48,348 bases of DNA from Candidatus Hydrogenedentota bacterium (GTDB lineage: Bacteria; JBFMHD01), in contig JBFMHD010000001.1 in the NCBI GenBank assembly GCA_040752395.1, positions 1 to 48,348 of the forward strand. The letters run 5' to 3'. Under the pieces are notes generated by a model. It was not told the DNA's origin. It saw only the letters and a list, made by a program, of their open reading frames with translations, and did not search any database. The position numbers and the translations under genes were made by a program. This document shows positions 16,605 through 48,348 of the stretch, piece after piece. Positions within the stretch are counted from its first letter, which is position 1, and each line of letters starts with the position of its first letter.

Positions 16605-18946
16605 CCAATGCTCTCTTTTTTAACCAACGCGAGATTAAGAACTTCATCCATATGTTTTACATAATGAACAATTATTCTTTTTTGAATCTTTTTTGGTATT
16701 TCTGAGACATCTTTTTCATTTTTATAAGGAACAACTATTTCTTTTATGTTGGCACGAAGACTTGCTAAAACTTTTTCACGTAAACCGCCAACAGGCAATA
16801 CCTCACCAATTAAATTTATCTCACCAGTCATAGCGATGTCACCACGCACAGGTATGTTTGATAATGCGGATATCATACTTGTGGCAATAGTTATGCCTGC
16901 TGAGGGGCCGTCTTTTGGTATCGCACCTTCAGGAACATGTATGTGCATATCACTTTTATTATAGAAATCACGTGGTATCGAATATTTTTTTGCTTCTTTT
17001 CTTGCATAAGATTTAGCTGCATAACAAGACTCTTTCATAACTTCGCCTAACTGACCTGTAAGCGTTAATTCTCCTTTACCCTCAAAAACAGAGGTCTGAA
17101 CCTCAAGCACCTCGCCACCAAACTCTGTCCAGGCAAGACCACGGGCTATTCCTATACGCGAGTCTTTTATAAAATCAGCATCAGAATATCGTGGTTTTTT
17201 AAGATATTTGTATATCGAGGGTTTGGTTATCTTTATTAATTTTGATTTACCCCCTTTTAAAAGAACCATATCTTTTGCTAATTTGCGAACTACTGATGAG
17301 AGTTCACGTTCAAGATTTCTTACCCCGGCTTCACGAGTGTATCCTTTGATTATTGTATAAATAGCTTCATCAATAAATTTGACTTTTCTCTTTGATAATC
17401 CGTTATCTTTTAATATTTTGGGTATAAGAAACCTTCTTGCTATCTCGAATTTCTCATATTCAGTATAACTCGGCAGATGTATAATTTCCATTCTATCCTG
17501 CAGGGGACGTGGTATCGGGTCAACAAAATTGGCTGTTGTAATAAATAATACTTTTGATAGGTCAAAATCTATTTCAAGATAATGGTCGCTGAAATGGATA
17601 TTTTGTTCAGGGTCAAGTACTTCGAGTAGTGCAGCCGAAGGGTCTCCTCTGAAATCCATTGACATTTTATCAACTTCATCGAGTAAAAAAACAGGGTTCA
17701 TACTTTCTGCTTTTTTCATAAGTTGTATAATTCTACCTGGTAGAGCACCGACATAAGTTCGTCTATGTCCGCGTATCTCAGCCTCATCTCTTACACCGCC
17801 AAGCGAGACCCTTACGAATTTTCGATCAAGTGCTCGGGCTATTGATTTAGCAAGCGAAGTTTTACCAACGCCAGGTGGTCCGACAAAACATAGAATAGGT
17901 GTTTTTGTTCCATCGGAAAGTTTTTTGATAGCAAGATATTCAAGGATTCGTTCTTTAGGGTCTTTTAAACCATAGTGGTCTTCCTCAAGAATTTTCTGTG
18001 CTCTTTTTATATCAAGTTTATCCTGAGTATAAACGTTCCATGGGAGGTCAAGTAACCAGTCAATATAGGTTCTTATTACGCCTGCCTCGGCACTTACAAA
18101 ATGCATTTTAGCAAGTCTATTAACCTCTTTGAGTGCTTTATTTTTTGCTTCCTCTGGCATTTTAGAACCATTAATTTTTTTTCTCAGCTCTTCAATTTCG
18201 TCTTCTTCATCACTACTTGCGCCGAGCTCTTTTTTTATTACCTTCATCTGCTCGTGAAGAAAATAATCACGTTGAGCTTTTTCAAACCTGTCTCTTACCT
18301 CGATGCGAATCTTCTGGTCGAGTTTTAATATCTCAAGTTCTGCCTGTAATTTCTCTATTAGTTTTTGCAGTCTCTCTTTTAGAGTTATGGTTTCAAGTAT
18401 TTCCTGCCTATCTTTAACCTTTAATAATGTATGAGCTGCGATACTATCACAAACCTGGGATGAGGACTCAAGATTGGATATCATAGCGAACGTTTCTTTC
18501 GGTATCTTTTTATTAAGAGATATGTATTCTTCAAACATCTCAATACATGTTCTTGTAAGAACAACTATATCTTTTGATTCATTAAGCTCTTCTTTTATTT
18601 CTTTAACGATTACCTGATAATAATTTTCATTTGATAAAAATCCGAGTAATAAACCGCGTCTTTCACCCTCAAGAAGAACTTTATAAGTACCATCAGGTAA
18701 TCTTAAGAACTGCAACACTTCACTCAGACAACCAACTTTATAAACCTGATTTTCATCAGGTTTATCTATGGTAGAATCAAGTTGTAAAGATATGAATATT
18801 TTTCTATCTACCTCCATAGCTTTTTCTATCGATCTGATAGAATTAGTTCTACCTACAAACACAGGAACAATCATTCCCGGGAAGATAACAATATCTCTTA
18901 GCGGCATCATTGGCAGTATATGTTCTTTATTATCAATTTGTTGCAT
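16601..18946 (-). CDS. lon: ATP-dependent Lon protease
   Basis: It has a LON N-domain, Walker A GPPGVGKTS and Walker B FLLDEVDK. The protease Ser site PKDGPSAG is present, and the length is 781 aa. Confidence 0.95.
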   Translation of the reverse strand: MQQIDNKEHILPMMPLRDIVIFPGMIVPVFVGRTNSIRSIEKAMEVDRKIFISLQLDSTIDKPDENQVYKVGCLSEVLQFLRLPDGTYKVLLEGERRGLLLGFLSNENYYQVIVKEIKEELNESKDIVVLTRTCIEMFEEYISLNKKIPKETFAMISNLESSSQVCDSIAAHTLLKVKDRQEILETITLKERLQKLIEKLQAELEILKLDQKIRIEVRDRFEKAQRDYFLHEQMKVIKKELGASSDEEDEIEELRKKINGSKMPEEAKNKALKEVNRLAKMHFVSAEAGVIRTYIDWLLDLPWNVYTQDKLDIKRAQKILEEDHYGLKDPKERILEYLAIKKLSDGTKTPILCFVGPPGVGKTSLAKSIARALDRKFVRVSLGGVRDEAEIRGHRRTYVGALPGRIIQLMKKAESMNPVFLLDEVDKMSMDFRGDPSAALLEVLDPEQNIHFSDHYLEIDFDLSKVLFITTANFVDPIPRPLQDRMEIIHLPSYTEYEKFEIARRFLIPKILKDNGLSKRKVKFIDEAIYTIIKGYTREAGVRNLERELSSVVRKLAKDMVLLKGGKSKLIKITKPSIYKYLKKPRYSDADFIKDSRIGIARGLAWTEFGGEVLEVQTSVFEGKGELTLTGQLGEVMKESCYAAKSYARKEAKKYSIPRDFYNKSDMHIHVPEGAIPKDGPSAGITIATSMISALSNIPVRGDIAMTGEINLIGEVLPVGGLREKVLASLRANIKEIVVPYKNEKDVSEIPKKIQKRIIVHYVKHMDEVLNLALVKKESIG

Positions 18947-19050
18947 AGCGGTGCTCGCCTCTTGCTTCGGGCAGACACTGGGGTCTGCACCTACATTGTT
19001 TTTTGATACTTCTCACTTTTTCCCCATCTTTAACCAGTGACATAACACAG

Positions 19051-20565
19051 CTATATCGGTATTTTACCCTCGAAACTCCTTATAATTTCCATTACCTCAT
19101 TAGAGTTTTTTGCAGTGAGAAAACGGCTTTTCAGAGTAGGGTTGGAAAGCAGGCGCGAGAGCTGGGAGAGTATCTGGAGATGAATTGTTGTCTTTTCTAA
19201 AGGCGTTAAGAATAAAAAAATTAAACGAACAGGAAGATTATCTGGTGCTAAAAAATCTATACCCTCTGATACCCGTGCAAATGTTAATAACGCATTTTTT
19301 AAAGATGGTATTCTGGCATGAGGGAGTGCTAAAGATGAACCGACACCTGAAGTGAATTTTTTTTCGCGCTCAATTAATAGTGTGTTAGCCTCATCTAAAC
19401 TAAATAAAGGTCTACATAAGTGTAAATTAGCAAGAATAGTTTTTATCGCAGTGAATCTATCCTCTGCTGTAACGTCAAATAACAATGAGTCCGTGATGAT
19501 AATATCGCTTAATGGTATCATTGGTCGCTCTTCATACCCGTCTCTTATCTCGCCAACTATCTCTTCAATAACGTCTTCAACAGTTATAATACCGACTATC
19601 TTGTTATCATCTGAGATAACAATAGCCATATTCTGGGTATTGTCCTGGAGACAGCGGAGACAATATTCAAGTCTATCCTCTGGATGAAACTGTAATATAT
19701 CTTTTTTTATTTTTTTAAGGTCAGGGTTCTGGTTCTCAGGTTGTGGTAGCAGAACCAAATCTTTAAGGTGGATATAACCAATAACACTATCGAGCTCATT
19801 TTCACATAACGGGTATTTTGAATATTTTCTATTTTTTATTATCTCTAAATTATCTTTCCAGGGTTTTGAGAGCGAGAGATAAGCTATCTTTTCTCTTGGG
19901 GTCATTGCATCTTTTACTTTAGTGTTACCAAAATCAAAGAGATTTTCAAACATTACTAATTGATCAAGTGATAGTTTCCCTGCTTCTTCACTGCGGTTAA
20001 GTAAAATCTTTATCTCTTCATTTGAGAGGATGTGGAGAGATTGCTCGGGTTTAATTTTGAATATTTTTAAAAAGAATTGCGCTAATTTATTTAAGATTAG
20101 CATCGGAACATAAGAAACGTAATAGATAAACGTCATAGGTAGAACAGTAGGGAATATCATTTTTTCAGGCATTTTTATAGCAATGAGTTTAGGTAACTGT
20201 TCACCGAAAAGGATGTGCAAGCTTGTAATAAAAACAAACGCGATAGCAAATGAGATTGTATACGAGAGTGCTTTTGAGACCAAAAGTGGTATATCGGGTA
20301 ATATTTGATAGATCAGCTGAGCTACTACAGGTTCGCCAATCCAGCCAACCCCAAGACTCGTCATAGTTATACCGAGCTGAACTGCTGCAAGATAATCGTC
20401 TATGTGTTTAAGAGCAAATTTAACGAGTTTTGCTCGTCTGTTGCCTTTACGAATCAGCTCCTCGACGCGACTCGAACGTATGGTAATAAGAGCAAATTCA
20501 ACAAGAACAAAAAATGCATTCAGTAATATCAAGATAATAGTAATAAGAATTTTAAGTAATACCAT
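19051..20565 (-). CDS. DUF21 (CNNM/CorB-type) membrane protein with a CBS pair and a C-terminal PTS EIIA type-2 domain
   Basis: The N-terminal 4-TM DUF21 region includes LLNAFFVLVEFAL. The CBS pair includes DAMTPREKI and IVGIITVEDVIEEIVGEI. The C-terminus VGSSLALPHAR matches the EIIA-2 phosphorylation-site signature. The start is taken at MVLLKIL (20565). Confidence 0.75.
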   Translation of the reverse strand: MVLLKILITIILILLNAFFVLVEFALITIRSSRVEELIRKGNRRAKLVKFALKHIDDYLAAVQLGITMTSLGVGWIGEPVVAQLIYQILPDIPLLVSKALSYTISFAIAFVFITSLHILFGEQLPKLIAIKMPEKMIFPTVLPMTFIYYVSYVPMLILNKLAQFFLKIFKIKPEQSLHILSNEEIKILLNRSEEAGKLSLDQLVMFENLFDFGNTKVKDAMTPREKIAYLSLSKPWKDNLEIIKNRKYSKYPLCENELDSVIGYIHLKDLVLLPQPENQNPDLKKIKKDILQFHPEDRLEYCLRCLQDNTQNMAIVISDDNKIVGIITVEDVIEEIVGEIRDGYEERPMIPLSDIIITDSLLFDVTAEDRFTAIKTILANLHLCRPLFSLDEANTLLIEREKKFTSGVGSSLALPHARIPSLKNALLTFARVSEGIDFLAPDNLPVRLIFLFLTPLEKTTIHLQILSQLSRLLSNPTLKSRFLTAKNSNEVMEIIRSFEGKIPI

Positions 20566-20847
20566 ATAAATAATTAGTATTCTGCAATTCAGACAGTAGT
20601 CCAAAGTCCAGTGTCTAAATCACAGATACTTAAGAATATAATATTAAGTGAGAGAATAGAGGTCAAGCCCAAATGAGGCTAAAATTTACAATGAACATCG
20701 CTTTAAAAACTACTTTTTCAGAACTTTTCCAATCACAGAAATTTAATACTTGACTATAAATAAAATTTACAATTTAAATCAATATTCAGTAAGGTCGCGA
20801 TTACACAAGGACATACGTGTTAAAACCATAATTTTAATGGAAAGACA

Positions 20848-21657
20848 ATGGATGATAAGAGATTACAAGAGATAGCTCATAAGGTAAGAAAGTATGTTAT
20901 TGAGATGACATTTAATGCTGGTAGTGGTCATCCTGGTGGGTCATTATCAGCTACAGATGTATTGACGTTTTTATATTTTGAAGAAATGAACGTTGATCCA
21001 GCTAGTCCGGATTATCCGGAACGTGATAGATTTGTGTTATGTAAGGGTCATTCAGCGCCGGCGCTTTATGCTGTGCTTGCTTTAAAGGGGTTTTTTCCTG
21101 AAGAAGAATTAAAGACTTTAAGAAAACTTGGATCCCGCTTACAGGGGCATCCAGAGAGAACCCTGCCTGGTATAGAAGTTGGTACAGGCTCTCTTGGTCA
21201 GGGATTATCGATTGCGCTTGGGATAGCTTTGGCTGCACGGCTTGATAAACGGCAGAGCAGGGTGTATGCTTTAATGGGAGATGGTGAACAGCAGGAGGGC
21301 CAGGTCTGGGAAGCAGCGATGGCTTGCGCACATTATAAAGTCTCGAATCTTTGTGCTATCGTTGATAAAAACAGGTTACAGATAGATGGTTCTACTGATG
21401 AAGTGATGGACATAGAACCACTTGATGAAAAATATAAAGCATTTGGCTGGAACGTTTTAAAAATAGATGGTCATTCTTTTACCGAAATAAGGAAAGCATT
21501 TAATAGGGCAAGAGAATGTAAAGAGTGCCCCACGTTAATAATTGCTAATACAATCAAGGGGAAAGGGGTTTCATTTATGGAGAATTCGCTTGAATTTCAT
21601 GGAAGGGCACTAACAGAGGATGAACTAAAAAGAGCGCTTAATGAGTTGTTGAAATGA
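20848..21657 (+). CDS. tkt: Transketolase, N-terminal (TPP-binding) subunit
   Basis: SGHPGGSLS, CKGHSAPALY and GDGEQQEGQVWEA are present. The length is 269 aa, typical of the split form. Confidence 0.9.
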   Translation: MDDKRLQEIAHKVRKYVIEMTFNAGSGHPGGSLSATDVLTFLYFEEMNVDPASPDYPERDRFVLCKGHSAPALYAVLALKGFFPEEELKTLRKLGSRLQGHPERTLPGIEVGTGSLGQGLSIALGIALAARLDKRQSRVYALMGDGEQQEGQVWEAAMACAHYKVSNLCAIVDKNRLQIDGSTDEVMDIEPLDEKYKAFGWNVLKIDGHSFTEIRKAFNRARECKECPTLIIANTIKGKGVSFMENSLEFHGRALTEDELKRALNELLK

Positions 21658-21829
21658 GTCTCCAGGAGCGCGGGTTGCGCTCTACACTATTGTGTTATTG
21701 GGTTATTGGGTTATTGGGTTATTGCGTTCTTGCGCTCTACATAACGTATGAAAAACTAGATGTTTGTTTATCTTGCCTCTTGCTTCTACTTGATATTATT
21801 AGAGTTAGAATGTTTTTCAGAGGAGAACA
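21658..21829 (+). repeat. Mosaic intergenic repeat, copy E, inserted between the two transketolase genes
   Basis: It starts with GAGCGCgggttGCGCTCTACAC. It then has five tandem 8-bp units over 21692-21731: three perfect GGGTTATT (21700-21723) flanked by degenerate GTGTTATT and GCGTTCTT. After that come a duplicated TTGCGCTCTACATAACGTATGAAAAAC and CTTGCCTCTTGCTTCTACT. The P module (21791-25) has 2 of 35 differences from copy A and lies 4 nt before the ATG at 21830. Confidence 0.9.
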
Positions 21830-22780
21830 ATGGTAGAGAAGATAGCTACGCGTGAAACTTATGGTAAAGTATTAGCTGAGCTTGGAGAGACTCATCCTGA
21901 GATAGTTGTGCTTGATGCTGATCTCTCAGGTTCTACTAAAACATCTGTGTTTGCAAAAAAGTTTCCTGATAGATTTTTTCAGATGGGTATAGCTGAAGCT
22001 AATATGATGTGTGTAGCAGCTGGTTTAGCGTTATCAGGGAAGATAGCATTTGTCTCTTCTTTTGCTTTATTTGCAACAGGGAGGGTCTGGGAACAGATAC
22101 GAAATACAATAGCCTATTCCAATACTAATGTTCGGATAGCAGCGAGTCATGCTGGTGTCTCTGTAGGCGCAGATGGTGCGAGTCATCAGTCTATTGAAGA
22201 TATAGCTATTATGAGAGCTATACCGCATATGACAGTGGTTGTGCCTGCGGATGCTGTTGAAACAGAGAAAGTTATAAGAGCATCACTTGAGTGGTATGGA
22301 CCTATGTATATTCGTCTCGGTAGAGCAAAGATGCCTGTTATAATTGATAAGGATGCTCCTTTTGAACTCGGCAAAGCTTATTTTTTAAGAAGAGGCAAGG
22401 ATGCTACAATTATCGCCTGTGGTCAGATGGTTTATGAAAGTATACAGGCTGCTATTAAATTAGAGGAAGAAGGCATCAATGTTTCTGTTGTAAATATGTC
22501 AACAGTTAAACCGCTTGATGTTGAGAGTTTAAAGATAGCTTATAAAGAGACAGGTGCTATAGTAACAGCTGAAGAGCATTCTGTGATTGGTGGTTTAGGC
22601 AGTGCTGTAGCAGAAGAAGTAGTGAGGCGATTTTCCTGCCCCGTTGAGATGATAGGCATAAAAGATGTATTCGGCCAATCAGGTGAGCCTGAAGAACTAT
22701 TTGAGGTTTTTTCATTAAAGCCAAGACATATAGCAGATGCAGTTAAAAAGGTTATACAACGAAAACGAAAGAAAGTATGA
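21830..22780 (+). CDS. tkt: Transketolase, C-terminal (pyrimidine-binding) subunit
   Basis: FFQMGIAEANMM, HAGVSVGADGASHQSIEDIA and the C-terminal domain are present. The length is 316 aa. Confidence 0.9.
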   Translation: MVEKIATRETYGKVLAELGETHPEIVVLDADLSGSTKTSVFAKKFPDRFFQMGIAEANMMCVAAGLALSGKIAFVSSFALFATGRVWEQIRNTIAYSNTNVRIAASHAGVSVGADGASHQSIEDIAIMRAIPHMTVVVPADAVETEKVIRASLEWYGPMYIRLGRAKMPVIIDKDAPFELGKAYFLRRGKDATIIACGQMVYESIQAAIKLEEEGINVSVVNMSTVKPLDVESLKIAYKETGAIVTAEEHSVIGGLGSAVAEEVVRRFSCPVEMIGIKDVFGQSGEPEELFEVFSLKPRHIADAVKKVIQRKRKKV

Positions 22781-23457
22781 ATGTACAGTTTTGTGATGTA
22801 AGTAAAGTTTATACAAGGGACATAACAGCGTTACATAATTTAAAAGTAAATATTAATCAAGGTGAGTTTGTTTTTGTTATCGGTCCTTCTGGAGCAGGTA
22901 AAACCACATTTTTAAGATTAATGTATCGTGATATAATACCAAGTAAAGGTCAGATTCTTGTTGATAATAAAAATATCTCACGGATGAGAGAGAGCGAGGT
23001 GCCTTATCTGAGACGCAGGATGGGAATAATATTTCAGGATTTTAAACTACTATATACCAAAACTGTTTTTGAGAACGTTGCGTTTGCTTTGAAAATACTT
23101 GGCAAAGAAGCTAATGAGGTTAAACAGCGGACGTATAGCGCACTTGAGTTTGTAAAATTGCAGGATAAACGTAATTTAAATCCATATAAATTATCAGGCG
23201 GCGAACAGCAACGAACAGCAATCGCAAGGGCTATTGTTAATCAGCCTGAACTAATACTTGCAGATGAACCAACAGGTAATCTTGATGACTCAATAGCAAG
23301 AGAGATATTTGAGTTATTTTTATATTTAAATAGCAAAAATACAACGGTTATTATTGCTACTCATAATATTGCTATTGCAAAAGCGATGAATACACGTGTG
23401 ATTTATCTAAAACAGGGTGAACTCATTGCTGATGGTTTTGCAGAGGACGTATTATGA
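22777..23457 (+). CDS. ftsE: Cell division ABC transporter ATP-binding protein FtsE
   Basis: Walker A GPSGAGKTT, signature LSGGEQQR and Walker B LILADEPT are present. It overlaps ftsX by 4 bp. Confidence 0.9.
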   Translation: MNVQFCDVSKVYTRDITALHNLKVNINQGEFVFVIGPSGAGKTTFLRLMYRDIIPSKGQILVDNKNISRMRESEVPYLRRRMGIIFQDFKLLYTKTVFENVAFALKILGKEANEVKQRTYSALEFVKLQDKRNLNPYKLSGGEQQRTAIARAIVNQPELILADEPTGNLDDSIAREIFELFLYLNSKNTTVIIATHNIAIAKAMNTRVIYLKQGELIADGFAEDVL

Positions 23458-24341
23458 TTTTATTAAGAAAGTGGTATTACATTCTGCAGGAAGCTATTAC
23501 AACTTTTAAAAGAACGCCTGGACTTGCTATAATAACAATTACTACACTTTTTTTTACTTTATTTATACTTGTTATTTTTATTATTGCAGGGATAAGCTTG
23601 AATAGCATTATTGAATCATATAAGGAGCATGCAAAGATTGTTATTTATTTAAAATCGCCGATTAATCTCTCGGCATTTAATGATATAAAAGATGAATTTA
23701 TTAGAAATAATAATGTAAAGAGTGTTGAATATATCTCGAATGAAAAAGCATTAGAGAATCTAAAGAATGAATGGGGCAGAGATAATCCGATATTTCAGGC
23801 CTTACCCGAGAACCCGCTTCCAGCGAGCATAGAAATCCAATTAAAACGGGGTGCTGAAGAGATCGATTCTATAATTGAGCTTTCAAAGAAAGTACCCGGG
23901 GTCGATGAGATACAGTATGGTCAAAAGACTTTTTCTAAACTTTTAAAAATATCAAAAGTGATCAGAACAAGTTTTTTATTTTTTGGAAGTATTTTATGTT
24001 TTATTGTTATGCTTATAGTTGCAAATACTATCAAACTTACAATTGTTGCGCGGGCTGATGAGATAGAGATTATGAGGCTGGTGGGTGCGGAAAACTGGTT
24101 TGTTAGGTCTTCTTTTATACTTGAAGGCATAATATATGGCGTTATTGGTGGTCTGCTGACTGTTATCTGTGTGAAAATGTTTTTAATTTATCTTGACAGA
24201 GAGTTTGAACTTATGAGGTTTTTATCATTTATAGAAACTGATAATATTCGCTGGATGTTTTATACTGTATCACTGGGGATAATCATCGGTTTTATAGGGG
24301 CTGTTGTTTCGATTGTAAGGCTGGAAGCAAATGAAGAGTAA
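23454..24341 (+). CDS. ftsX: Cell division permease-like protein FtsX
   Basis: It has an N-terminal TM helix, a periplasmic loop and a C-terminal three-TM FtsX domain (IEIMRLVGAENWFVRSSFILEG). It is in operon with ftsE. Confidence 0.85.
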   Translation: MILLRKWYYILQEAITTFKRTPGLAIITITTLFFTLFILVIFIIAGISLNSIIESYKEHAKIVIYLKSPINLSAFNDIKDEFIRNNNVKSVEYISNEKALENLKNEWGRDNPIFQALPENPLPASIEIQLKRGAEEIDSIIELSKKVPGVDEIQYGQKTFSKLLKISKVIRTSFLFFGSILCFIVMLIVANTIKLTIVARADEIEIMRLVGAENWFVRSSFILEGIIYGVIGGLLTVICVKMFLIYLDREFELMRFLSFIETDNIRWMFYTVSLGIIIGFIGAVVSIVRLEANEE

Positions 24342-25488
24342 ATTATTACTGATTTTACTTTTATTTTCAGTGCCTTTATTTTCAGAGGACATCTATCAAA
24401 GGATACAGGAAACAGAAAAAAATATAAATATCTCGTATTCTAAAAAAGGTGACCTTGAAAAAGAAAGTAAAGAGATACAGGAAAAAATAAAAGAAGTTAT
24501 TAAAAAAGAGAAAGGCTATACCGCATTGAGAGACAGGACCGAGAGGGAATTGTATAAAATAGAGAAAGAAAAAAATATTATTGAGAAGAATGTTGAGAGA
24601 ATAAAAAAAGATATAATTAAAACAGAATACGAGATAGGCGAATTAAATGTTTCACAGAAACAGCAGGAACAGGCTTTAACAAGAAGGGTAGTAGCGCTTT
24701 ATAAACTCGGGAAATATGGCTATGTTGATATACTTTTATCTTCTGAAGACATACTTGATTTCGAATCGCGGATAAAATATCTGATGCTTATCTCTGAAGC
24801 TGATGCAAAACTTATTCAGAATATAATAATAGCAAGAGATAAAAAAGAAGAAACAAAAATATTACAAAAACAGAATTTTGATAAACTTAAAATAGAATTC
24901 AGTAAAAAAATTGACTGCGAAAATAAAATGAAATCTAAAACCAATGAATTAAAGACTATTGTCAATAATTTGAAAGATAATAAAAAGCTTTTAGAGATAA
25001 GAAACCGGGAGATCCAGGAATCCTTAGATAATCTTAACAAAACTATCGAGAATTTATTGAAAAAAAGAAAACTGCTGGAAGAAGAAGAATTGGCTCTGAA
25101 AAGAGAATTCGATGCAAAGAGAGGGAACCTTATATGGCCATGCGATAGAAATAAAATTATAGGGTATCAGTTCAACCCTTATGAAAACAGTAAGGGAATA
25201 AAGATTACCATACCAGAGGGTTGTAATGTTTATGCTGTATCGCCCGGAAAAGTTGTTTATGCTGATTGGATGAAAGGGTTTGGTAGACTAATTTTAATTG
25301 ACCACGGCGGCGGTTATTATACTCTTTATGGGCACTTAAGTAGTATAGATATTGAGGTAGATAAAGAAGTAAAAACAAAGGATGTTATTGGTAAAACAGG
25401 CCAGACCGGTTCTGATGAAGGTCCGGTACTTTATTTTGAGATAAAGTATACGAATAAAAGTGTTGAAGTAAAAAAATGGTTGAAATAA
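24331..25488 (+). CDS. envC: EnvC-like murein hydrolase activator (coiled-coil + degenerate LytM/M23 domain)
   Basis: It has a signal peptide, a long coiled-coil and a C-terminal M23 fold. The catalytic His residues are replaced (GPVLYFEIK instead of PHLHFE), as in non-catalytic EnvC. It follows ftsEX. Confidence 0.75.
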   Translation: MKSKLLLILLLFSVPLFSEDIYQRIQETEKNINISYSKKGDLEKESKEIQEKIKEVIKKEKGYTALRDRTERELYKIEKEKNIIEKNVERIKKDIIKTEYEIGELNVSQKQQEQALTRRVVALYKLGKYGYVDILLSSEDILDFESRIKYLMLISEADAKLIQNIIIARDKKEETKILQKQNFDKLKIEFSKKIDCENKMKSKTNELKTIVNNLKDNKKLLEIRNREIQESLDNLNKTIENLLKKRKLLEEEELALKREFDAKRGNLIWPCDRNKIIGYQFNPYENSKGIKITIPEGCNVYAVSPGKVVYADWMKGFGRLILIDHGGGYYTLYGHLSSIDIEVDKEVKTKDVIGKTGQTGSDEGPVLYFEIKYTNKSVEVKKWLK

Positions 25489-25535
25489 CTACGAAGAAAG
25501 TATAAAAGGTAGAAGACAGAAGACAGGAGTGAAAA

Positions 25536-26942
25536 ATGAGAAGATTTTCTTTAGGCTTGTTGATTGTTATATTGATAGTCTCATCTGTTAGTATCTCGGG
25601 TATATCACAGAATACAAGTAATGAAATTTTGAATAAGCTTGGTCTTATACCTGAGGTAATAAAAATCATTGAGGATGATTTTGTAACCGGGGATGCTATT
25701 GATAAAAAGGAATTGATTTATGGTGCGTTGAGAGGAATACTTTCTACTCTTGAAGACCCGCACACAAGATTTGTGCCACCTCAAGATTTTATTGAAATGA
25801 AAGAAGAGACAAGCGGAGAGTTTGGGGGGCTCGGGATGTACATCGGTATAGAAGATGGTATCTTGACTGTAATTTCTCCGATTGATGGGACACCGGCTTT
25901 TAAAGCAGGTGTAAAAGCAAAAGATAAAATAACAAAGATTGATGATGTCTCCACTGAAGGGATAGATGTACATCAAGCAGTCTCAAAATTAAAAGGTAAA
26001 CCAGGAACAAAGGTAACTATAACCATTTTAAGACGAGGTATAGAAAAGGAATTTGATCTAACTATTACAAGAGATATTATTAAGATACGTAGTGTCAAAT
26101 CCATTATGTTAAAAGATGATATAGGATATATTAGGGTAAGTACGTTTAATGCGCATACACAAGATGAAATAAAAGATGCATTTAATGATTTACAGAGAAA
26201 GGGTATGAAGAAATTGGTAATTGATTTGAGATATAATGCAGGTGGGTTGTTAAAGTCTGCTGTTATGGTCTCGGATTTATTTTTAAAAAAAGGGTTGATT
26301 GTATCTACAAAAGGAAGAGCCTTTGATCAGAATGTAAATTACGAAGCACAGGATGGTGATCCGCTTGAAGAGATACCTGTTGTTGTAATAATCAATGACA
26401 GGAGTGCATCGGCATCAGAAATCGTTGCCGGTGCTTTGCAGGATAATAAGCGAGCAACCATTGTTGGTAGGCAGAGTTATGGCAAAGGCTCTGTTCAGTC
26501 CGTAAAAGGATTAAGTGATGGGTCTGCTGTATCATTAACAACAGCTGAATATTATACTCCTTCCGGAAAAAATATTAACATAGATTATTTAAAACTAAAA
26601 AAAGATAAAGAGTATGCTAAAAATAAACCCTGGGGTATAAAGCCTGATGTTATTGCAGAAAACTCGCTTGATAAAGAATTTACAGCTTTAGAACTTTTAC
26701 ACATGTACTATTTAGCTGAAACAAAAATAATATTTGAGTTTGCTAAAGAAAACACTGATTACACTGATACTGATGTTAATGAGATTATGAATAAGCTAAA
26801 GGAAAAGAATATAAATATTGAAGAGGATAGAATAAGGCTGAGTCTTATTGATGAGTTGTCAAGACGGAATGAAAACAGAGTCTATTTTGATCTGAAAGCT
26901 GATTCACAGCTTTTAACAGCTGTTAATATATTACAGAAATGA
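25536..26942 (+). CDS. ctpA: Carboxy-terminal processing protease (peptidase S41) with PDZ domain
   Basis: A PDZ region (GGLGMYIG...SPIDGTPAFKAGVKAKDKITKIDD) is present. The S41 core includes DLRYNAGG and RSASASEIVAGALQDNKRATIVG..SYGKGSVQ. Confidence 0.9.
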   Translation: MRRFSLGLLIVILIVSSVSISGISQNTSNEILNKLGLIPEVIKIIEDDFVTGDAIDKKELIYGALRGILSTLEDPHTRFVPPQDFIEMKEETSGEFGGLGMYIGIEDGILTVISPIDGTPAFKAGVKAKDKITKIDDVSTEGIDVHQAVSKLKGKPGTKVTITILRRGIEKEFDLTITRDIIKIRSVKSIMLKDDIGYIRVSTFNAHTQDEIKDAFNDLQRKGMKKLVIDLRYNAGGLLKSAVMVSDLFLKKGLIVSTKGRAFDQNVNYEAQDGDPLEEIPVVVIINDRSASASEIVAGALQDNKRATIVGRQSYGKGSVQSVKGLSDGSAVSLTTAEYYTPSGKNINIDYLKLKKDKEYAKNKPWGIKPDVIAENSLDKEFTALELLHMYYLAETKIIFEFAKENTDYTDTDVNEIMNKLKEKNINIEEDRIRLSLIDELSRRNENRVYFDLKADSQLLTAVNILQK

Positions 26943-28060
26943 GAAAAATCACAGGCTCACAATTAATATTCGTATTGTTAATAATTACATCTGTGCTTAT
27001 TTTGATACTTTTTTATTTTGAGTTTCAATTACATAAAAAAGTGGTTAAAGAAGAAAAGATAGCGCAGCAGCAGGAACAGCAGATTTATAGTAAAATCTGG
27101 AAAGATATAGAAACTATTATAGATGATTCGATTTTGAATTTACCCGATGGTGTCAGGTTTGTAAGAAAAAAGGTTATATTTAATAATAATCAACCCACAG
27201 GTGATTATCTTTTCTTGTTAAAAAACGAGGATACGTATAAAGAATTAAAAGATTTTTTAAAAAATCAGATAGAAAAATCTCAATATGAAGTAAAGTTCAA
27301 AATCGAGGAGAATAAATATATAGTTAGATATAAGGACAAGATTTTGTTTTCGCTCAGCTCTATACTGAATTATGTTTCAAGTATCAATGTAATAATAGAT
27401 GATTGTGGTTATGGTACTTCGCTTGAAAAGAAGTTTCTTGAGCTTGATAATAGAATCGCTTTTGCTGTTTTACCGTATCTTAGGGCGAGTAAGAGATTTG
27501 CAGAAGAAGCTAAAGATAAAGGCTTTGATGTAATGCTTCATCTCCCGATGGAATCACAAGCTGGAAATAACCCGGGACCGTATGCTGTTTTAACAAATCT
27601 ATCTGAAAACGAGATATTACTTAGACTTGAGAAAGCATTTAATAATATCGGGATTGAGAACATATGCGGTGTGAACAATCATATGGGGTCTAAGGCTACC
27701 TCTGATGAAAGAACAATGAGAATCGTTCTCTCTTGCTTGAAGAACAAAGGATTGTTTTTTATTGATAGTTTAACCTCGAATAAAAGTGTTGGATTACAGA
27801 TCGCTAAAAAACTCGGGATACCAACCGCAGCAAGAGACGTATTCCTTGATAATACCATCACAGAAGAATATGTAAGAAAACAGTGGAACCATTTACTTAA
27901 TCTTTCAAAAAAAAACGGGAACGCCATCGCTATAGGCCATTGTATAAGTTTACCAACCTATACAATTCTTAAAGAAGAGCTGCCACTTCTAAAAGAGAAA
28001 AATATCTATCTTTTAAGGGTTACTGAAAAGGTTGGGGGGTATGAATTTTATGGTAATTGA
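26939..28060 (+). CDS. Divergent polysaccharide deacetylase (YibQ family)
   Basis: The C-terminal half has VIIDDCGYG, AVLPY, MLHLPME and NNHMGS, typical of YibQ-like proteins. It lies in the conserved envC-ctp-yibQ context. Confidence 0.75.
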   Translation: MRKITGSQLIFVLLIITSVLILILFYFEFQLHKKVVKEEKIAQQQEQQIYSKIWKDIETIIDDSILNLPDGVRFVRKKVIFNNNQPTGDYLFLLKNEDTYKELKDFLKNQIEKSQYEVKFKIEENKYIVRYKDKILFSLSSILNYVSSINVIIDDCGYGTSLEKKFLELDNRIAFAVLPYLRASKRFAEEAKDKGFDVMLHLPMESQAGNNPGPYAVLTNLSENEILLRLEKAFNNIGIENICGVNNHMGSKATSDERTMRIVLSCLKNKGLFFIDSLTSNKSVGLQIAKKLGIPTAARDVFLDNTITEEYVRKQWNHLLNLSKKNGNAIAIGHCISLPTYTILKEELPLLKEKNIYLLRVTEKVGGYEFYGN

Positions 28061-28106
28061 TCAGTTATAAGTGGGTAGAAAGTTAAAAGTGAGAAGTAGC
28101 AGGATA

Positions 28107-28187
28107 GGCTCCGGATTGCAGACTACAGGCTACGGGCTTTTGGCTCCAGCCGGCTGGAGCCTCCTATGAAAAGCCTTGAATCCTGTT
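28107..28187 (-). repeat. Mosaic intergenic repeat, copy F (partial word block containing a perfect 20-bp palindrome)
   Basis: GACTACAGGCTACGGGC...GGCTCCAGCCGGCTGGAGCC...AAAAGCC..TGAATCCTGTT is collinear with 4330-4405 of copy B. The palindrome is at 28142-28161. Confidence 0.75.
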
Positions 28188-28202
28188 AATGTAATTCAAA
28201 GA

Positions 28203-28230
28203 TTAACACCATACTCCTTGTTTTTATAAT
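28203..28230 (+). promoter_or_regulatory. Candidate sigma70-type promoter for tsaD
   Basis: It reads TTAACA (28203-08), a 16-nt spacer, then TATAAT (28225-30). This is 83 nt upstream of the ATG at 28313. Confidence 0.3.
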
Positions 28231-28312
28231 CTTTCAATCTTTGAACATTCTCATTTCTTTGAGCCTTTGTTACTATGTGCCTTTGTGCCTCAAACTGAGG
28301 AAATATTTTTTT

Positions 28313-29362
28313 ATGATTATTCTTGGGATTGAAACAAGCTGTGATGAGACCTCCTGTGCTATTGTTGAGGATGGCAATTTATTAGCAAATGTTGTAATAT
28401 CACAGGTTGAGATACATAAAGAATATGGTGGTGTGGTTCCTGAAATCGCTTCAAGGAATCATATTGAAAATATTATTCCTATTCTTAACCAGACACTTGA
28501 GGATGCAAATAAAAGAATTGAGGATATCACAGCTTGTGCTGTGACAGTTGCACCTGGATTAATAGGTGCTTTATTTGTGGGAACCTGTTTTGCCAAAACA
28601 CTCAGTTATGCTTTAGATATCCCGTGTCTGCCTGTCCATCATATCGATGCACATATCCAGTCAATATATCTGGAGCACAAAGATATTAAATACCCGTATG
28701 TCGCTTTTATTTTATCCGGTGGTCATACACAAATTGTATTTTGCAACAGTATTGGAGATTATAAAATTCTTGGTACCACACTTGATGACTCTGTTGGTGA
28801 AGCATATGATAAAGTAGCAAGGCTTTTAAATCTCGGATATCCCGGAGGCCCAATTATAGATTCCATAGCAAAAGATGGTGATAAGGAAAAAATAAAATTT
28901 CCAAAGGTGTTTTTAGATGAGGGGTCACTTGATTTCTCTTTAAGTGGATTAAAGACAGCTGTTTATTATTTTCTAAAAAAGAACAAGGGTGGCTATAAAG
29001 TAGAAGATATATGTGCAAGTTTTCAAAAATCAGTTAGTGATGTTATATTGAAACGCATAGAACAGATATATAATAGAACCGGGTGCAAGCGTTATATTTT
29101 ATGCGGTGGGGTTGCGGCTAATAGCTTTTTAAGAAAAGTTATGAAAGAGAAGATCAGTGAATACGATGGTGAATTTTACGTACCATCATTAGAATATTGT
29201 ACCGATAATGCAGCAATGGTTGCTCTTGCAGCTTACAGAAATTATGTGAACTCACTTATCACTTCGTCAGCACTGGATTTAAATCCCGAGGCATATCTTA
29301 ACATCACTGATTTTTTCAAAATTCAATCTGCCTGCTCGATGCCACGGCATCCAGGTTCATAA
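28313..29362 (+). CDS. tsaD: tRNA N6-adenosine threonylcarbamoyltransferase
   Basis: ILGIETSCDETS, EIASRNH, HHIDAH and SGGHT are present, and the C-terminal GGVAANSFLR is typical of the Kae1/TsaD family. The start is moved to the ATG at 28313 (GAGGA Shine-Dalgarno). The track's 24 extra codons lie in intergenic repeat sequence. Confidence 0.9.
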   Translation: MIILGIETSCDETSCAIVEDGNLLANVVISQVEIHKEYGGVVPEIASRNHIENIIPILNQTLEDANKRIEDITACAVTVAPGLIGALFVGTCFAKTLSYALDIPCLPVHHIDAHIQSIYLEHKDIKYPYVAFILSGGHTQIVFCNSIGDYKILGTTLDDSVGEAYDKVARLLNLGYPGGPIIDSIAKDGDKEKIKFPKVFLDEGSLDFSLSGLKTAVYYFLKKNKGGYKVEDICASFQKSVSDVILKRIEQIYNRTGCKRYILCGGVAANSFLRKVMKEKISEYDGEFYVPSLEYCTDNAAMVALAAYRNYVNSLITSSALDLNPEAYLNITDFFKIQSACSMPRHPGS

Positions 29363-38364: not shown

Positions 38365-38496
38365 AACAATATGATTTTATATTTATTAAAAATGTCAATT
38401 GAAATCGCAGAAAAGAGGTATTCCCTCAGTTCCTCAACCTAAACCTTAACTTTTCTTTTCCGTTATCTGTCTCCTGCTTCTTCATTCCCCCTATAA

Positions 38497-38593
38497 CTGA
38501 GAACGTGTGAAAAAATTAGACTTTTTCAGAAAATAGGGGCTGATAATAAAAGAGTTGCCCAGTATTAATGACGATTATTTCACACGTTCTGAG
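38497..38593. repeat. 16-bp inverted repeat pair enclosing a 65-nt spacer
   Basis: CTGAGAACGTGTGAAA (38497-38512) pairs with TTTCACACGTTCTGAG (38578-38593), complementary at 15 of 16 positions. Confidence 0.7.
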
Positions 38594-38627
38594 GCATAAC
38601 AAAAAAGAGGTCTCTGAAAAACTGAGG

Positions 38628-38692: not shown

Positions 38693-38984
38693 CTTTTTCA
38701 GAAACTCATCAACTTTTTCGAAGGAGTCCTCATGAGCGCGGTTTGCGCTCTACACAACGTATGAAAAACTAAAGATGATATGGAAAAGAGTCGTGAGTCA
38801 AAACAGGACTCGAGACTCAAGACTCAAGACTCAAGACTTTTCAGCAGGCTCCGGGCTTCGGGCTCCAGCTGGCTGTAGTCCGTAGCCTGTAGCCTGTCCT
38901 GATACCTCTCACTTCTTCCGTTATCTTGCCTCTTGCTTCTATTTTGATATTATTAGAGTTACAGCGTTTTTCAGAGGATGATTA
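38693..38984 (+). repeat. Mosaic intergenic repeat, copy G (full-length reference copy)
   Basis: In order: TTTTTCGAAGGAGTC; CATGAGCGCGGTTTGCGCTCTACACAACGTATGAAAAAC; GAGTCGT GAGTCAA aacagga CTCGAGA (CTCAAGA)x3. Then GGCTCCG GGCTTCG GGCTCCA GCTGGCT GTAGTCC GTAGCCT GTAGCCT, CTTGCCTCTTGCTTCT, and the P module at 38945-79. The ATG is at 38985. Confidence 0.9.
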
Positions 38985-39947: not shown

Positions 39948-39962
39948 AAGAGATAATATGTA

Positions 39963-40046
39963 GAGGCAAGATAACGAAAGAAGCAAGATTATCTTGCTTC
40001 TTGCTTCTACTTGATATTATTATAGTTACAGCGTTTTTCAGAGGAG
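39963..40046 (+). repeat. Mosaic repeat, copy H (inverted + direct CTTGCTTC word block forming a 12-bp-stem palindrome, then P module)
   Basis: AAGAAGCAAGAT t ATCTTGCTTCTT spans 39978-40002. The P module at 40012-40046 has 2 of 35 differences from copy A and lies 5 nt before the ATG at 40052. Confidence 0.9.
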
Positions 40047-48231: not shown

Positions 48232-48243
48232 TATATATAGTGA

Positions 48244-48348
48244 GGAGACAGGAGACAGAAGACAGGAGTGGAAGGCACAAAGGATATTAGGGGATGGGTC
48301 ATAGGGGATGGGGTATATTAGGGGGCGGCGGTTAGGGGTTAGGGGTCG
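48244..48348 (+). repeat. Heptamer word tract followed by a dense G-run cluster (runs to the window edge)
   Basis: GGAGACA GGAGACA GAAGACA GGAGTGG AAGGCAC spans 48244-48278. It is followed by GGGGatGGGtcataGGGGatGGGGtatattaGGGGGcGGcGGttaGGGGttaGGGG. Confidence 0.8.

Follow-up and report, generated by a model that had tools for sequence, protein, structure and literature searches.

Why do the spacers between unrelated genes in this stretch of DNA repeat the same short sequence modules in the same order, and what might those modules do for the genes beside them? Within the window (the whole 48,348-nucleotide stretch that was analysed), the P module was sought with the query TTAKAGTTASARYGTTTTTCAGAGG at three or fewer mismatches and was found seven times, at 193, 4285 (minus strand), 5436 (minus strand), 7027, 21799, 38953 and 40020, against an expectation of 0.00 derived from 100 dinucleotide shuffles. 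The H hairpin with its tail (GAGCGCNNNTTGCGCTCTACA) was found five times, at 112, 4457 (minus strand), 5560 (minus strand), 21666 and 38734, again with 0.00 matches expected by chance. An earlier note on this DNA had proposed at least eight copies of a mosaic family built from ordered modules that are present or absent as wholes. All eight copies are there, at or near the places it had given them, and a BLAST map, a MAFFT alignment and regular-expression coordinates for each module uphold the mosaic structure. The order is fixed: a P-like head, the H hairpin, a GAGTC/GACTC heptamer hairpin, a GGCT/GTAGCC heptamer hairpin, CTTGCYT heptamers and finally P. Copies vary by gain or loss of whole modules. 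The copies, lettered A to H, and their decayed relatives are as follows.

95–219, plus strand: copy A, upstream of an HDOD gene; degenerate head within the 3′ end of the upstream gene, whose stop codon TGA (111–113) overlaps the ATG (110–112) of a mini-ORF; H hairpin 112–128; H tail 129–147; AACTTTT heptamers 161–182; TGATATTAT 185–193; P core 189–217; GAGGAG 214–219; ATG of the HDOD gene 224.
4283–4538, minus strand: copy B, long type; linker CTGATACTTCTTACTTC 4522–4538; head, a diverged full P (ATTATTAGGGTCGCGAAGTTTTTCAAAGGAG), about 4486–4518; H hairpin 4461–4477; H tail 4430–4460; GAGTC/GACTC heptamer hairpin about 4381–4424; GGCT/GTAGCC hairpin about 4315–4375; P core 4285–4313, in an intact P that lacks a start codon at Shine-Dalgarno spacing; 105-nt tandem repeats and a radical-SAM gene lie downstream.
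5434–5611, minus strand: copy C; head 5586–5602; H hairpin 5564–5580 with a decayed left arm and the mini-ORF ATG lost; H tail 5533–5563; GGCT hairpin about 5468–5529; P core 5436–5464, in the most degenerate P of all (GGGGTG replacing GAGGAG); the ATG of a nucleotidyltransferase gene follows after 70 nt, with a TTGACA...TAATGT promoter-like site intervening.
6996–7053, plus strand: copy D, short type, in a divergent spacer upstream of a NIL-domain gene; CTTGCTT heptamers 7000–7015; TGATATTAT 7019–7027; P core 7023–7051; GAGGAG 7048–7053; ATG 7062.
21649–21825, plus strand: copy E, between the genes for the transketolase N and C subunits (tktN and tktC); head holding the tktN stop codon TGA (21655–21657); H hairpin 21666–21682; insertion of 55 nt of GTTATTGG octamers with TTGCGCTCTACA duplicated on both flanks, about 21683–21737; H tail 21738–21756; CTTGCCT heptamers 21772–21787; TGATATTAT 21791–21799; P core 21795–21823; GAGGAG 21820–21825; tktC ATG 21830.
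28100–28190, minus strand: copy F, partial and without P; on that strand it reads P-like tail CTTTTCATAGGAGG, GGCT hairpin (palindrome core 28144–28159) and TTTTAACTTTCTA (28076–28088), the last abutting the stop codon of a deacetylase gene; the sole copy aimed at a gene 3′ end.
38693–38984, plus strand: copy G, the most complete, in a divergent spacer upstream of an epimerase gene; head 38713–38728; H hairpin 38734–38750; H tail 38751–38786; GAGTC/GACTC heptamer hairpin 38788–38838; GGCT/GTAGCC hairpin 38843–38897; linker 38899–38915; CTTGCCT heptamers 38925–38940; promoter-like TTGCCT-16-TATTAT with TG, 38926–38953; P core 38949–38977; GAGGAT 38974–38979; epimerase gene ATG 38985.
39962–40046, plus strand: copy H, short type, between the epimerase gene and a UDP-glucose dehydrogenase gene; inverted AAGCAAG/CTTGCTT heptamer hairpin, terminator-like, 39978–40002; CTTGCTT heptamers 39993–40008; TGATATTAT 40012–40020; P core 40016–40044; GAGGAG 40041–40046; ATG 40052.
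38480–38625, upstream of copy G: decayed older fragments, comprising a plus-strand stretch resembling a heptamer block and P (..CCGTTATCTGTCTCCTGCTTCT..GACTTTTTCAGAAAATAGGGG) and, at 38604–38625 on the minus strand, an inverted P-like CCTCAGTTTTTCAGAGACC aimed at a divergent AddA-like gene.
38516–38545 (inside the interval just listed) and 20710–20722, both plus strand: decayed P-like fragments.

The bounds first proposed for the copies are close, except that copy B reaches approximately 4538 through the CTGATACYTCTYACTTC linker (4522–4538) and copy C approximately 5611; copy F is the inverted partial copy it was said to be, with the extent listed above. The family had been called intergenic, but in copies A and E the head runs into the 3′ end of the preceding gene, and because the stop codons of those genes fall inside the element, the family is not strictly so. 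A genome scan located at least one locus beyond the window. This ninth copy, L001, lies at the start of contig JBFMDD010000128.1 (‘MAG: bacterium isolate MAG210’), which opens within the H hairpin and continues through the H tail, the GGCT hairpin and P to an ATG. The modules are thus not confined to this window, and the P pieces total eight. Family pieces occupy eight of the 11 intergenic regions longer than 100 nt and so fill most spacers of the window; because contigs also break in these repeats, high abundance throughout the genome is plausible. Two contig ends here lie in repeats, which fragment MAG assemblies.

P itself (ATTATTAKAGTTASARYGTTTTTCAGAGGAG) forms the last 31–38 bases of the element. 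The family had been described as lying in both orientations, which stands with respect to the window strand, but every P-bearing copy is oriented alike with respect to the next gene. In six of the eight P copies the GAGGAG ends 4–9 nt before an ATG (A, 4 nt; D, 8; E, 4; G, 5; H, 5; L001, 9), and the genes that follow are unrelated, encoding HDOD, NIL, transketolase C, epimerase and UDP-glucose dehydrogenase proteins and, for L001, a small membrane peptide. The two P copies that stand away from a start codon are B, in which P is fully intact, and C. Wherever copies lie between tandem genes P is aimed at the downstream gene (5/5), and seven of the eight window copies are directly upstream of, and co-oriented with, a gene start. 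By a rough estimate rather than a computation, the chance that five copies placed at random in spacers as long as these would all end 4–9 nt from an ATG is below 1e-6. The function of the family had been called unexplained, which is not wholly so, since its 3′ module occupies the position expected of a ribosome-binding site and possibly of a promoter.

All five P-linked genes examined for it have a Shine-Dalgarno consensus match (4–7 nt), which is absent from positions −21 to −4 in 20 of 31 other window genes. Given that most genes here do without such a match, translation initiation might not depend decisively on GAGGAG. Copy F, which alone is wrongly oriented, has no P and the displaced copy C has the most degenerate one, a pattern of decay that suggests selection on P where it serves a gene. 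As a separate observation on gene starts, a TTG start at 40001 reads through P, and repeats of this kind can mislead start-codon calling.

P may also bring transcription signals. TGATATTAT, an extended −10-like motif, occurs in five of the eight P copies, and its TG is absent from the three CCCGAATTATT-type copies. A consensus scan called TTGCCT-16-TATTAT with TG in copy G and TTAACT-17-TATTAT with TG in copy A; it called no promoter in D, E or H because the promoter-like spacing there is just 15 nt. By eye, ordinary TTGACA/TATAAT-like sites can be read before other window genes, and for this reason the sigma-70 consensus should apply. Judged from these motifs, the TGATATTAT subtype, preceded by CTTGCYT or AACTTTT heptamers, probably supplies an extended −10 promoter.

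On balance, and with modest confidence, we favor the interpretation that the repeats are copies of a portable gene-start cassette, serving as a 5′ leader or intercistronic unit, that is dispersed as a mosaic family and propagated duplicatively. Direct support comes from the family and its grammar, its subfamilies, the orientation and start-codon distance of its members, the expansion of a spacer and a folding bias toward the sense strand; use as a ribosome-binding site, promoter activity, roles for RNA structure and mobility would be its consequences. P would give the next gene a strong Shine-Dalgarno sequence 4–9 nt before its ATG, and the upstream modules (H and the two long hairpins) would be co-transcribed, on the sense strand, as structured RNA whose hairpins most likely would act as stabilizer, processing or insulator structures between cistrons. 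Module length would drift by slippage of heptamers or octamers and by deletion of whole modules. Because a ribosome-binding site would travel with the element, as would a stop codon for the upstream gene in some copies, the element could enter gene starts and operons without polar damage, and the absence of such damage would explain how it came to occupy most spacers.

Evidence for propagation comes from the relationships among the copies. Identity runs at 85–98% across all modules, not P alone. Copies C and L001 share one deletion architecture and are 93% identical over 136 collinear nt, D and H are 98% identical over 58 nt, and B and G are 92% identical over 208 aligned columns. The members of each pair are alike yet stand beside unrelated genes, which argues for duplicative spread of variants. 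These nine copies come from one lineage and possibly from one MAG; they are not independent observations. A second line of evidence is the tktN-tktC spacer, which in the window is 172 nt long and consists entirely of the element. Desulfothermobacter keeps the order tktN-tktC-ftsE-ftsX-M23 peptidase with a spacer of 12 nt, and Ca. Loosdrechtia keeps tktN-tktC-S41 peptidase-tsaD with one of 56 nt; by comparison with these distant relatives, copy E is an apparent expansion of a compact spacer. No identical proteins are on record for three window proteins, the best non-self homologues are 63% (transketolase C) and 56–57% (Lon) identical, and the searched collections hold no close relative for an empty-site comparison. 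The window likewise encodes no mobilizing gene, and the statement in the earlier note that it holds no terminal inverted repeats, target-site duplication or transposase stands, the Pfam scans having covered 36 ORFs. The case for mobility is therefore built from the subfamily structure and the distant relatives.

Might the element be purely selfish? We consider it rather unlikely, and yet worth weighing first, that it is a REP/BIME-like or IS200/IS605-type non-autonomous element moved by a RAYT/TnpA-like single-strand transposase or a site-specific recombinase encoded elsewhere, with adjacency to start codons reflecting target preference (for example, for a TTTTTCAGAGGAG-like ribosome-binding region, which would give direct terminal repeats) and not host function. 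The element does combine subterminal hairpins with a lack of terminal inverted repeats and target-site duplications, and this combination is a hallmark of IS200/IS605 and REP-type elements. Descriptions of both are available for comparison (cf. PMC6006769, PMC2817692). On the antisense strand, the H hairpin of every copy is a GTAG followed by a GC-rich stem (GTAGAGCGC-N5-GCGCTC), and GTAGCCY heptamers form one arm of the second hairpin, both with some resemblance to GTAG-tagged REPs (PMC3733652). A REP unit, however, is a GC-rich palindrome of 20–40 nt whose GTAG (or CGTC) tag is unpaired at one end; the H unit (GTAG-AGCGC-N5-GCGCT-C) is only about 20 nt, and the last G of its GTAG is paired. 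An imperfect direct repeat of about 13 nt bounds the long copies, with TTTTTCARAGGAG standing in the head and once more in P, decayed copies have accumulated in spacers, and the perfect P of copy B has no gene start beside it. Known REPs, in contrast, lie mostly downstream of genes, often as inverted dimers (PMC3733652, PMC2817692), whereas H here is single and has one orientation relative to the other modules, and the family sits at 5′ ends. None of the 36 ORFs is a RAYT, TnpA or integrase, and the selection on P suggested by its decay in C and loss from F speaks against a purely selfish unit.

A related scheme, which we judge improbable, is that a trans-acting enzyme integrates the non-autonomous unit specifically at ribosome-binding regions, the TTTTTCARAGGAG direct repeats being duplicated or recombined target. 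If this were true, a unit comprising a promoter, a Shine-Dalgarno sequence and insulator hairpins would rewire gene starts genome-wide and cause no polar damage, in effect as a natural ‘promoter-RBS knock-in’ in an uncultured bacterium of a deep-branching lineage.

We assign similarly low credence to the idea that the repeats are a conserved cis-regulatory leader. Here P, with or without the head, would bind a global post-transcriptional regulator (CsrA-, CspA- or S1-like, or a small RNA) or would form a structural switch in which UGAAAAAC of the H tail changes partner between the GUUUUUCA of the head and that of P; the genes next to P would be a regulon, and identity would be held by selection and not by recent copying. 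P does overlap the ribosome-binding site, an argument of the kind made for the TAACTGA repeats of Beggiatoaceae (PMC4679880), and both the head and P contain GUUUUUCA, the complement of UGAAAAAC. When copy G is folded to minimum free energy, its H tail is base-paired to P, and UCCUC is paired to the GAGGA of the Shine-Dalgarno sequence; in the fold of copy B the partner of the H tail is the head instead. A 10-codon mini-ORF (MSAVCALHNV) with its own AAGGAG lies between the head and the H tail and has its UGA stop inside UGAAAAAC. Against this idea, the anti-Shine-Dalgarno pairing is not kept among copies, and the mini-ORF ATG is missing in two of five. The downstream genes have no common functional theme, and 85–98% identity in every module, indels common to variants, and decayed copies are the pattern of a repeat and not of operators.

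Folding as such points to the sense strand. Whole-element folding there gave z = −4.2 and −5.4, against −1.9 for the antisense strand of copy G, and in all four GGCT hairpins the sense RNA is more stable by 4–9.5 kcal/mol, with three variable base pairs that remain paired via G-U wobble. The arms of the long hairpins are mutually complementary heptamer repeats, giving 6-bp helices broken every 7 nt. Compensatory base-pair changes are not seen among the copies, which are too similar to reveal them; this lack of covariation, and the lack of an Rfam match, likewise count against a conserved leader. UUUUUCAG or the hairpins may be candidate RNA processing sites. H was considered as an intrinsic terminator and rejected: no T-run follows it on either strand and terminator scans call none. 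All four perfect period-7 arrays of at least 2.5 units in the window are intergenic. AGRAGAC heptamers adjoin the ATG at 25536.

Very unlikely, in our estimation, is a translational coupling device like that of MIRUs, which insert at start codons with a −4 overlap (PMC12548453), in which a short ORF running from the upstream stop to the downstream start would deliver ribosomes. Copy E carries a 60-codon ORF (21654–21836) whose ATGA start overlaps the tktN stop and whose end lies 4 nt past the tktC ATG, and just 120 of 5000 shuffles kept this frame open (p ~0.02, a post hoc value). In copy A, too, the upstream stop overlaps the mini-ORF ATG as ATGA. A full bridge is nevertheless found in copy E only, the frame through H differs between A and E, and the mini-ORF of A, B and G stops after 10 codons, 70–230 nt short of the gene. 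Copies D and G, moreover, occupy divergent spacers, where no upstream gene is available for coupling. Finally, an assembly artefact or local duplication is scarcely credible: the window is a MAG contig whose right end, like the start of L001, lies in repeats, but the copies differ in substitutions and modules, sit between intact unrelated genes with conserved synteny, and recur on an independent contig.

Database searches placed the family in no described group. Rfam gave no match at gathering score over the whole window, and permissive E-values yielded chance-level matches far below the gathering scores. The P and H patterns had no matches in JGI metagenome contigs or IMG/VR, two further modules had none in IMG/VR, aligned antisense ORFs of 40–47 aa from the element retrieved no candidate from a 5.8-billion-protein database, and neither a plasmid collection nor a literature search for the module sequences returned anything related or relevant. 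One phage match, of AAGACTC heptamers to the neuO heptanucleotide repeat of coliphage CUS-3, is due to chance and unrelated. A methylation or restriction-site reading of GANTC/GAGTC was set aside, since GAGTC/GACTC occurs at 0.77 per kb in coding DNA, where by our own composition estimate about 1 per kb is expected, and so is not strongly avoided. Integron attC, retron, group II intron and CRISPR assignments were likewise rejected, there being no core site, reverse transcriptase, integrase or repeat-spacer structure. The direct termini (TTTTTCARAGGAG), the sharp boundaries of D and H with no flanking duplication visible, and the absence of an IS from the window are unlike a MITE.

The earlier note had likened the behavior of the family to E. 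coli BIME/REP or pneumococcal BOX elements, a comparison not supported by the co-orientation of P with the downstream gene and its position at a start codon in six of eight cases. The family shares with REP/BIME its small GC-rich hairpins, plausibly active as RNA, its abundance as an intergenic mosaic, and the lack of terminal inverted repeats and target-site duplications; the antisense GTAG beside the H stem may be a further likeness. REPs, however, favor positions downstream of coding regions and between unidirectional or convergent ORFs (PMC3733652), and successive REPs of a BIME have alternating orientations (PMC2817692); in this family H is single, the module order is fixed and, with seven of eight copies upstream of a gene start, the element is locked to 5′ ends. 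With BOX (boxA-boxB(n)-boxC) the only likeness is a modular build in which internal modules vary in number. The pneumococcal repeats are enriched between convergent genes, BOX carries both terminal inverted repeats and target-site duplications, and BOX-encoded ORFs are without good Shine-Dalgarno sequences (PMC3049150). Neisseria Correia elements also have both of those terminal features, whereas the family here has none of these properties, nor any related sequence in plasmid collections, phage collections or the literature. Operon transcripts include BOX as a 5′ or 3′ adduct, and Correia elements, which can create promoters, undergo RNA processing (PMC3049150, PMC3575422).

The closest analogues appear to be MIRUs, TAACTGA repeats and putative mobile promoters. 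MIRUs are short dispersed repeats that lie in operons at gene starts, co-oriented, with downstream expression preserved (PMC12548453), and the family resembles them in that co-directional genes flank E and H, an ATG follows 4–9 nt after A, D, E, G, H and L001, and A and E overlap the upstream stop codon via ATGA. MIRUs differ in being a short ORF coupled at −4 and in forming tandem variable-number units, whereas here a bridging ORF exists in E only, the copies are not tandem units, a non-coding P would give the Shine-Dalgarno sequence (and perhaps a promoter), the build is a hairpin mosaic and there is no sequence similarity. The family is like the TAACTGA repeats of marine Beggiatoaceae, some Cyanobacteria and Bacteroidetes (MacGregor 2015, PMC4679880), and like long heptanucleotide simple repeats more generally, in having tandem heptamers that are confined to intergenic DNA and run forward just before the start codons of genes with no functional relationship, against a genomic background of few canonical Shine-Dalgarno sequences. 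The heptamers here (GAGTCGT/GACTCAA, GGCTNCG/CGTAGCC, CTTGCYT and AACTTTT) are instead mostly inverted as hairpin arms, and the piece at the start codon is not the heptamer itself but a unique 31-nt P with a canonical Shine-Dalgarno sequence. Putative mobile promoters are recognized when the regions upstream of non-homologous genes of a single genome are 80% or more identical across 50 nt or more (Matus-Garcia, Nijveen, van Passel 2012; PMC3575422), and the B/G, C/L001 and D/H pairs all exceed these values; the two groups are also alike in having no link to known mobile elements. That class is an operational one scored at −150 to −50, whereas the shared block here extends to the ribosome-binding site, follows a modular grammar and is present in most spacers.

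If the gene-start cassette interpretation is true, a mobile or copy-pasted sequence would supply many unrelated housekeeping genes with their translation-initiation region and probably with their promoter, conserved operons included, in a genome most of whose genes are without a Shine-Dalgarno sequence. The family would then offer a natural system for studying how a repeat spreads harmlessly into 5′ regions, how the reuse of promoters is linked to that of ribosome-binding sites, and why heptamer slippage is so favored.

The repeat family described in the earlier note is real. Its eight copies and their ordered modules were recovered by repeat finding, by a short-word BLAST search of the window with the two longest copies as queries, by MAFFT alignment of six long copies and from regular-expression coordinates for each module, and the alignment gaps by which copies differ correspond to whole modules. 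The 25-nt core of the P module, TTAKAGTTASARYGTTTTTCAGAGG, occurs seven times in the 48.3-kb window (at most two mismatches) and never in 100 dinucleotide-preserving shuffles, and the H hairpin-plus-tail pattern GAGCGCNNNTTGCGCTCTACA occurs five times with none expected. Some details required amendment. Copy B extends to about 4538 and copy C to about 5611; the head of copy A and that of copy E both enter upstream coding regions. Copy F, described as inverted and partial, is best read as minus-oriented and lacks P. The evidence comes from nine copies, all related and all from a single uncultured organism.

Modules of copy G (38693-38984, plus strand), the most complete copy, followed by decayed P-like fragments
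38713-38728: P-like head, CTTTTTCGAAGGAGTC
38734-38750: H hairpin, GAGCGC-N5-GCGCTC
38751-38786: H tail, TACACAA-N3-ATGAAAAAC-TAAAGATGATATG
38788-38838: first heptamer hairpin, arms (GAGTCGT)n and (GACTCAA)n
38843-38897: second heptamer hairpin, arms (GGCTNCG)n and (CGTAGCC)n flanking CCAGCYGGCTG
38899-38915: linker, CTGATACCTCTCACTTC
38925-38940: CTTGCYT heptamers
38949-38977: P core, then GAGGAT at 38974-38979
38516-38545: decayed P-like fragment
38604-38625, minus strand: decayed P-like fragment
20710-20722: decayed P-like fragment

Pieces of the family occupy 8 of the 11 intergenic regions that exceed 100 nt in a window of about 33% G+C with densely packed housekeeping genes. These encode an HDOD protein, a radical-SAM/B12 enzyme, a HEPN/nucleotidyltransferase pair, TamB (which suggests a diderm cell envelope), Lon, a split transketolase, FtsEX, M23 and S41 peptidases, TsaD, AddAB-like nucleases, sugar-nucleotide enzymes, ArgJ and a PBP. 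The best non-self homologues reach only 63% identity for transketolase C and 56-57% for Lon, and therefore the organism represents a deep branch whose close relatives are absent from collections. No tRNA or Rfam family was found in the window. Copies B and C flank the HEPN/minimal-nucleotidyltransferase pair (4645-5363), which is toxin-antitoxin-like. Among the few spacers without the family is 7920-8416, where a 69-aa ORF (8074-8283) with a DTGS motif and an overlapping frame next to it weakly matches retropepsin-like aspartyl protease families (E about 2e-3, below the cut-off) and is probably a frameshifted pseudogene. Cumulative GC skew reaches its minimum at about 20605-20847, where mostly minus-strand genes (2418-20604) give way to plus-strand genes (20848 onward); a replication origin or plain coding-strand bias could account for this, and no dnaA lies nearby.

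A feature that the earlier note overlooked is that every P copy is oriented toward the next gene. The last six bases of P are GAGGAG, except in G (GAGGAT) and C (GGGGTG), and a start codon usually follows within a few nucleotides.

Distance from P to the ATG of the following gene
Copy A (about 95-219, plus strand): 4 nt, HDOD
Copy D (about 6996-7053, plus strand): 8 nt, NIL
Copy E (21649-21825, plus strand): 4 nt, transketolase C
Copy G (38693-38984, plus strand): 5 nt, epimerase
Copy H (39962-40046, plus strand): 5 nt, UDP-glucose dehydrogenase
Ninth copy (contig JBFMDD010000128.1): 9 nt, small hydrophobic ORF

Pfam domains begin at residues 4-7 of the encoded proteins, in support of these start codons. 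A Shine-Dalgarno match of 4-7 nt precedes all five P-linked genes of the window, whereas 20 of the other 31 genes lack one (at least 4 nt, -21 to -4); the mechanical rule used to call ORFs probably misplaced some starts (TTG at 3899, 20604, 28241, 30783, 35363). Two copies depart from this arrangement: C, the most degenerate P, has a promoter-like site (TTGACA...TAATGT) between P and the gene, and the intact P of B is followed by a 380-nt leader with 105-nt tandem repeats. Copy F, the one without P, is also the sole copy facing the 3' end of a gene. These positions strongly suggest that P supplies a ribosome-binding site. One P subtype probably also supplies a promoter, a proposal with moderate support. 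The extended -10-like sequence TGATATTAT opens five P copies, and a consensus scan called TTGCCT-16-TATTAT in G and TTAACT-17-TATTAT in A, both with TG. The scan called no promoter in D, E or H because their spacer is 15 nt, and for this reason we infer promoter function rather than observe it. Taken together, the best-supported reading is that the family is a portable gene-start cassette.

Other repeats also lie at gene starts, and this genome seems generally inclined to place tandem Shine-Dalgarno-like units there. The stretch from the intact P of copy B to the radical-SAM/B12 gene contains, at 3852-4172, 2.8 units of a 105-nt tandem repeat (75% matches), each with a perfect palindrome, TGAGGCA-G-TGCCTCA, adjoining TTGACA. 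The array resembles a phased series of operators or enhancers with a site every 10 helical turns. Because the TTG annotated at 3899 falls within the repeat, translation probably starts instead at the ATG near 3869. A second heptamer family, AGRAGAC, occurs at 25511-25535 and 48243-48270: at the S41 peptidase gene, AGAAGAC AGAAGAC AGGAGTG aaaa ATG covers the ribosome-binding site, and the series recurs at the right end of the window (AGGAGAC twice, AGAAGAC, AGGAGTG). Two units of GAGGTTTT precede the GTG at 43301.

Several comparisons indicate how the cassette may have spread. Gene order is kept for tktN-tktC-ftsE-ftsX-M23 peptidase in Desulfothermobacter and for tktN-tktC-S41 peptidase-tsaD in Ca. 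Loosdrechtia, yet the tktN-tktC spacer measures 12 nt and 56 nt in these organisms and 172 nt in the window, where it consists of copy E throughout. The wider order at 20848-29362 (tktN-tktC-ftsE-ftsX-M23-S41 peptidase ... tsaD) is partly common to both, with only about 60% protein identity; this cell-envelope/transketolase neighbourhood is unusually conserved. Copies of like architecture sit at unrelated loci: C and the ninth copy have the same module deletion and 93% identity over 136 collinear nt, D and H share a TATAG variant and 98% identity over 58 nt, and B and G agree at 92% of 208 aligned columns. Conservation is similar in all modules, P included, and decayed layers pile up in spacers. 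Duplicative dispersal fits this pattern better than independently conserved operators do. A rival is a selfish REP/IS200-like element that prefers ribosome-binding regions as its target. As the earlier note had observed, no terminal inverted repeat, target-site duplication or transposase was seen in the window; the 36 ORFs scanned include no transposase, integrase or RAYT, and neither an empty site nor a mobilizing gene was found.

The hairpin arms are built from heptamers. In the fold of the second hairpin, a single mismatch every 7 nt separates helices of 6 bp. Perfect tandem arrays (at least 2.5 units) number four at period 7 and one at period 8, all intergenic and within elements, and intergenic arrays at periods 5, 6 and 9-11 were not found. 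This is consistent with the excess of heptanucleotide repeats in bacteria, for which polymerase slippage is proposed as the cause in a passage of PMC4679880 citing Mrazek 2007. Arm length varies by copy (GAGTC/GACTC units 3 + 3 in B and 2 + 5 in G). The H module of copy E contains a 55-nt insertion (21683-21737) of GTTATTGG octamers (5.6 copies, TRF), flanked by a directly duplicated 12-nt sequence, TTGCGCTCTACA; the insertion is a footprint of slippage or duplication, not of transposition. The head of copy B is a full-length diverged P (ATTATTAGGGTCGCGAAGTTTTTCAAAGGAG versus ATTATTAGAGTTACAGCGTTTTTCAGAGGAG) preceded by the same linker as in G, and thus long copies end in imperfect direct, not inverted, repeats. 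The mosaic would arise from heptamer slippage together with module loss.

Folding asymmetry supports the proposal that the hairpin modules act as co-transcribed RNA structures. On the sense strand, whole elements fold significantly more stably than shuffles (z = -4.2 for G, -5.4 for B; antisense G, -1.9), and all four GGCT hairpins are more stable as sense RNA, by 4-9.5 kcal/mol. Three variable pairs in this hairpin remain paired through G-U; no compensatory double changes occur in the hairpins, whose copies are too similar for this test. By analogy with REP, BOX, ERIC and Correia elements (PMC3049150), the hairpins may serve as stabilizers, processing sites or insulators. Another rival would make the family a leader of a regulon or a structural switch. 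Head and P both contain GUUUUUCA, which is complementary to the H tail UGAAAAAC, and the predicted partner of the tail varies between the folds of G and B, which makes a possible alternative-pairing switch a lead. MIRU-like translational coupling is a further rival. A 10-codon mini-ORF follows the AAGGAG of the head in three of five copies, its ATG overlapping the upstream stop as ATGA in copy A. A 60-codon ORF (21654-21836) spans all of copy E, from an ATG overlapping the tktN stop (ATGA) to a stop codon 4 nt past the tktC ATG. This frame, a single post hoc case, stays open in 120 of 5000 shuffles (2.4%) and matches nothing in Pfam; either MIRU-like coupling or coincidence may account for it.

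The remaining rival, an assembly artefact, is countered by the genome scan, whose listed matches include at least one outside locus, on JBFMDD010000128.1 ('MAG: bacterium isolate MAG210'). That contig starts inside an H hairpin and continues through H tail, GGCT hairpin, P and GAGGAG, and the right end of the window likewise lies in heptamer repeats; evidently, the family breaks assemblies. The assembly probably broke at 48284-48346, where G-rich repeats (ATATTAGGGGATGGG x2.6 and GGTTAGG x2.4, GGGGTTA-like) have G-quadruplex potential. P, H and two other modules had no match in JGI metagenome contigs and IMG/VR, the element had none among plasmids, and the module sequences had none in the searchable literature. 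The sole phage match arose by chance: the AAGACTC heptamer of the first hairpin arm of G is the unit of the phase-variable neuO repeat of coliphage CUS-3 (83.6% over 53 nt), which is almost certainly convergence.

The earlier note was partly right in its interpretation. It likened the family to REP/BIME or BOX elements, but the location and pairing rules of REP/BIME do not hold here (a GTAG tag is only suggestive), and the lack of terminal inverted repeats and target-site duplications rules out BOX and MITE membership. Closest in working are MIRUs, which insert at start codons and preserve expression (PMC12548453). The family also resembles the TAACTGA heptamer repeats that cover ribosome-binding sites in Beggiatoaceae (PMC4679880), and falls within the operational definition of putative mobile promoters (PMC3575422). 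An element carrying its own initiation signals would be tolerated at gene starts and inside operons without polar effects, and such tolerance would account for its density. The combination of a unique Shine-Dalgarno-bearing terminal module, ordered complementary-heptamer hairpins and near-saturated spacers in a deep-branching lineage appears to be undescribed, and its anchoring to gene starts is both unusual and testable.
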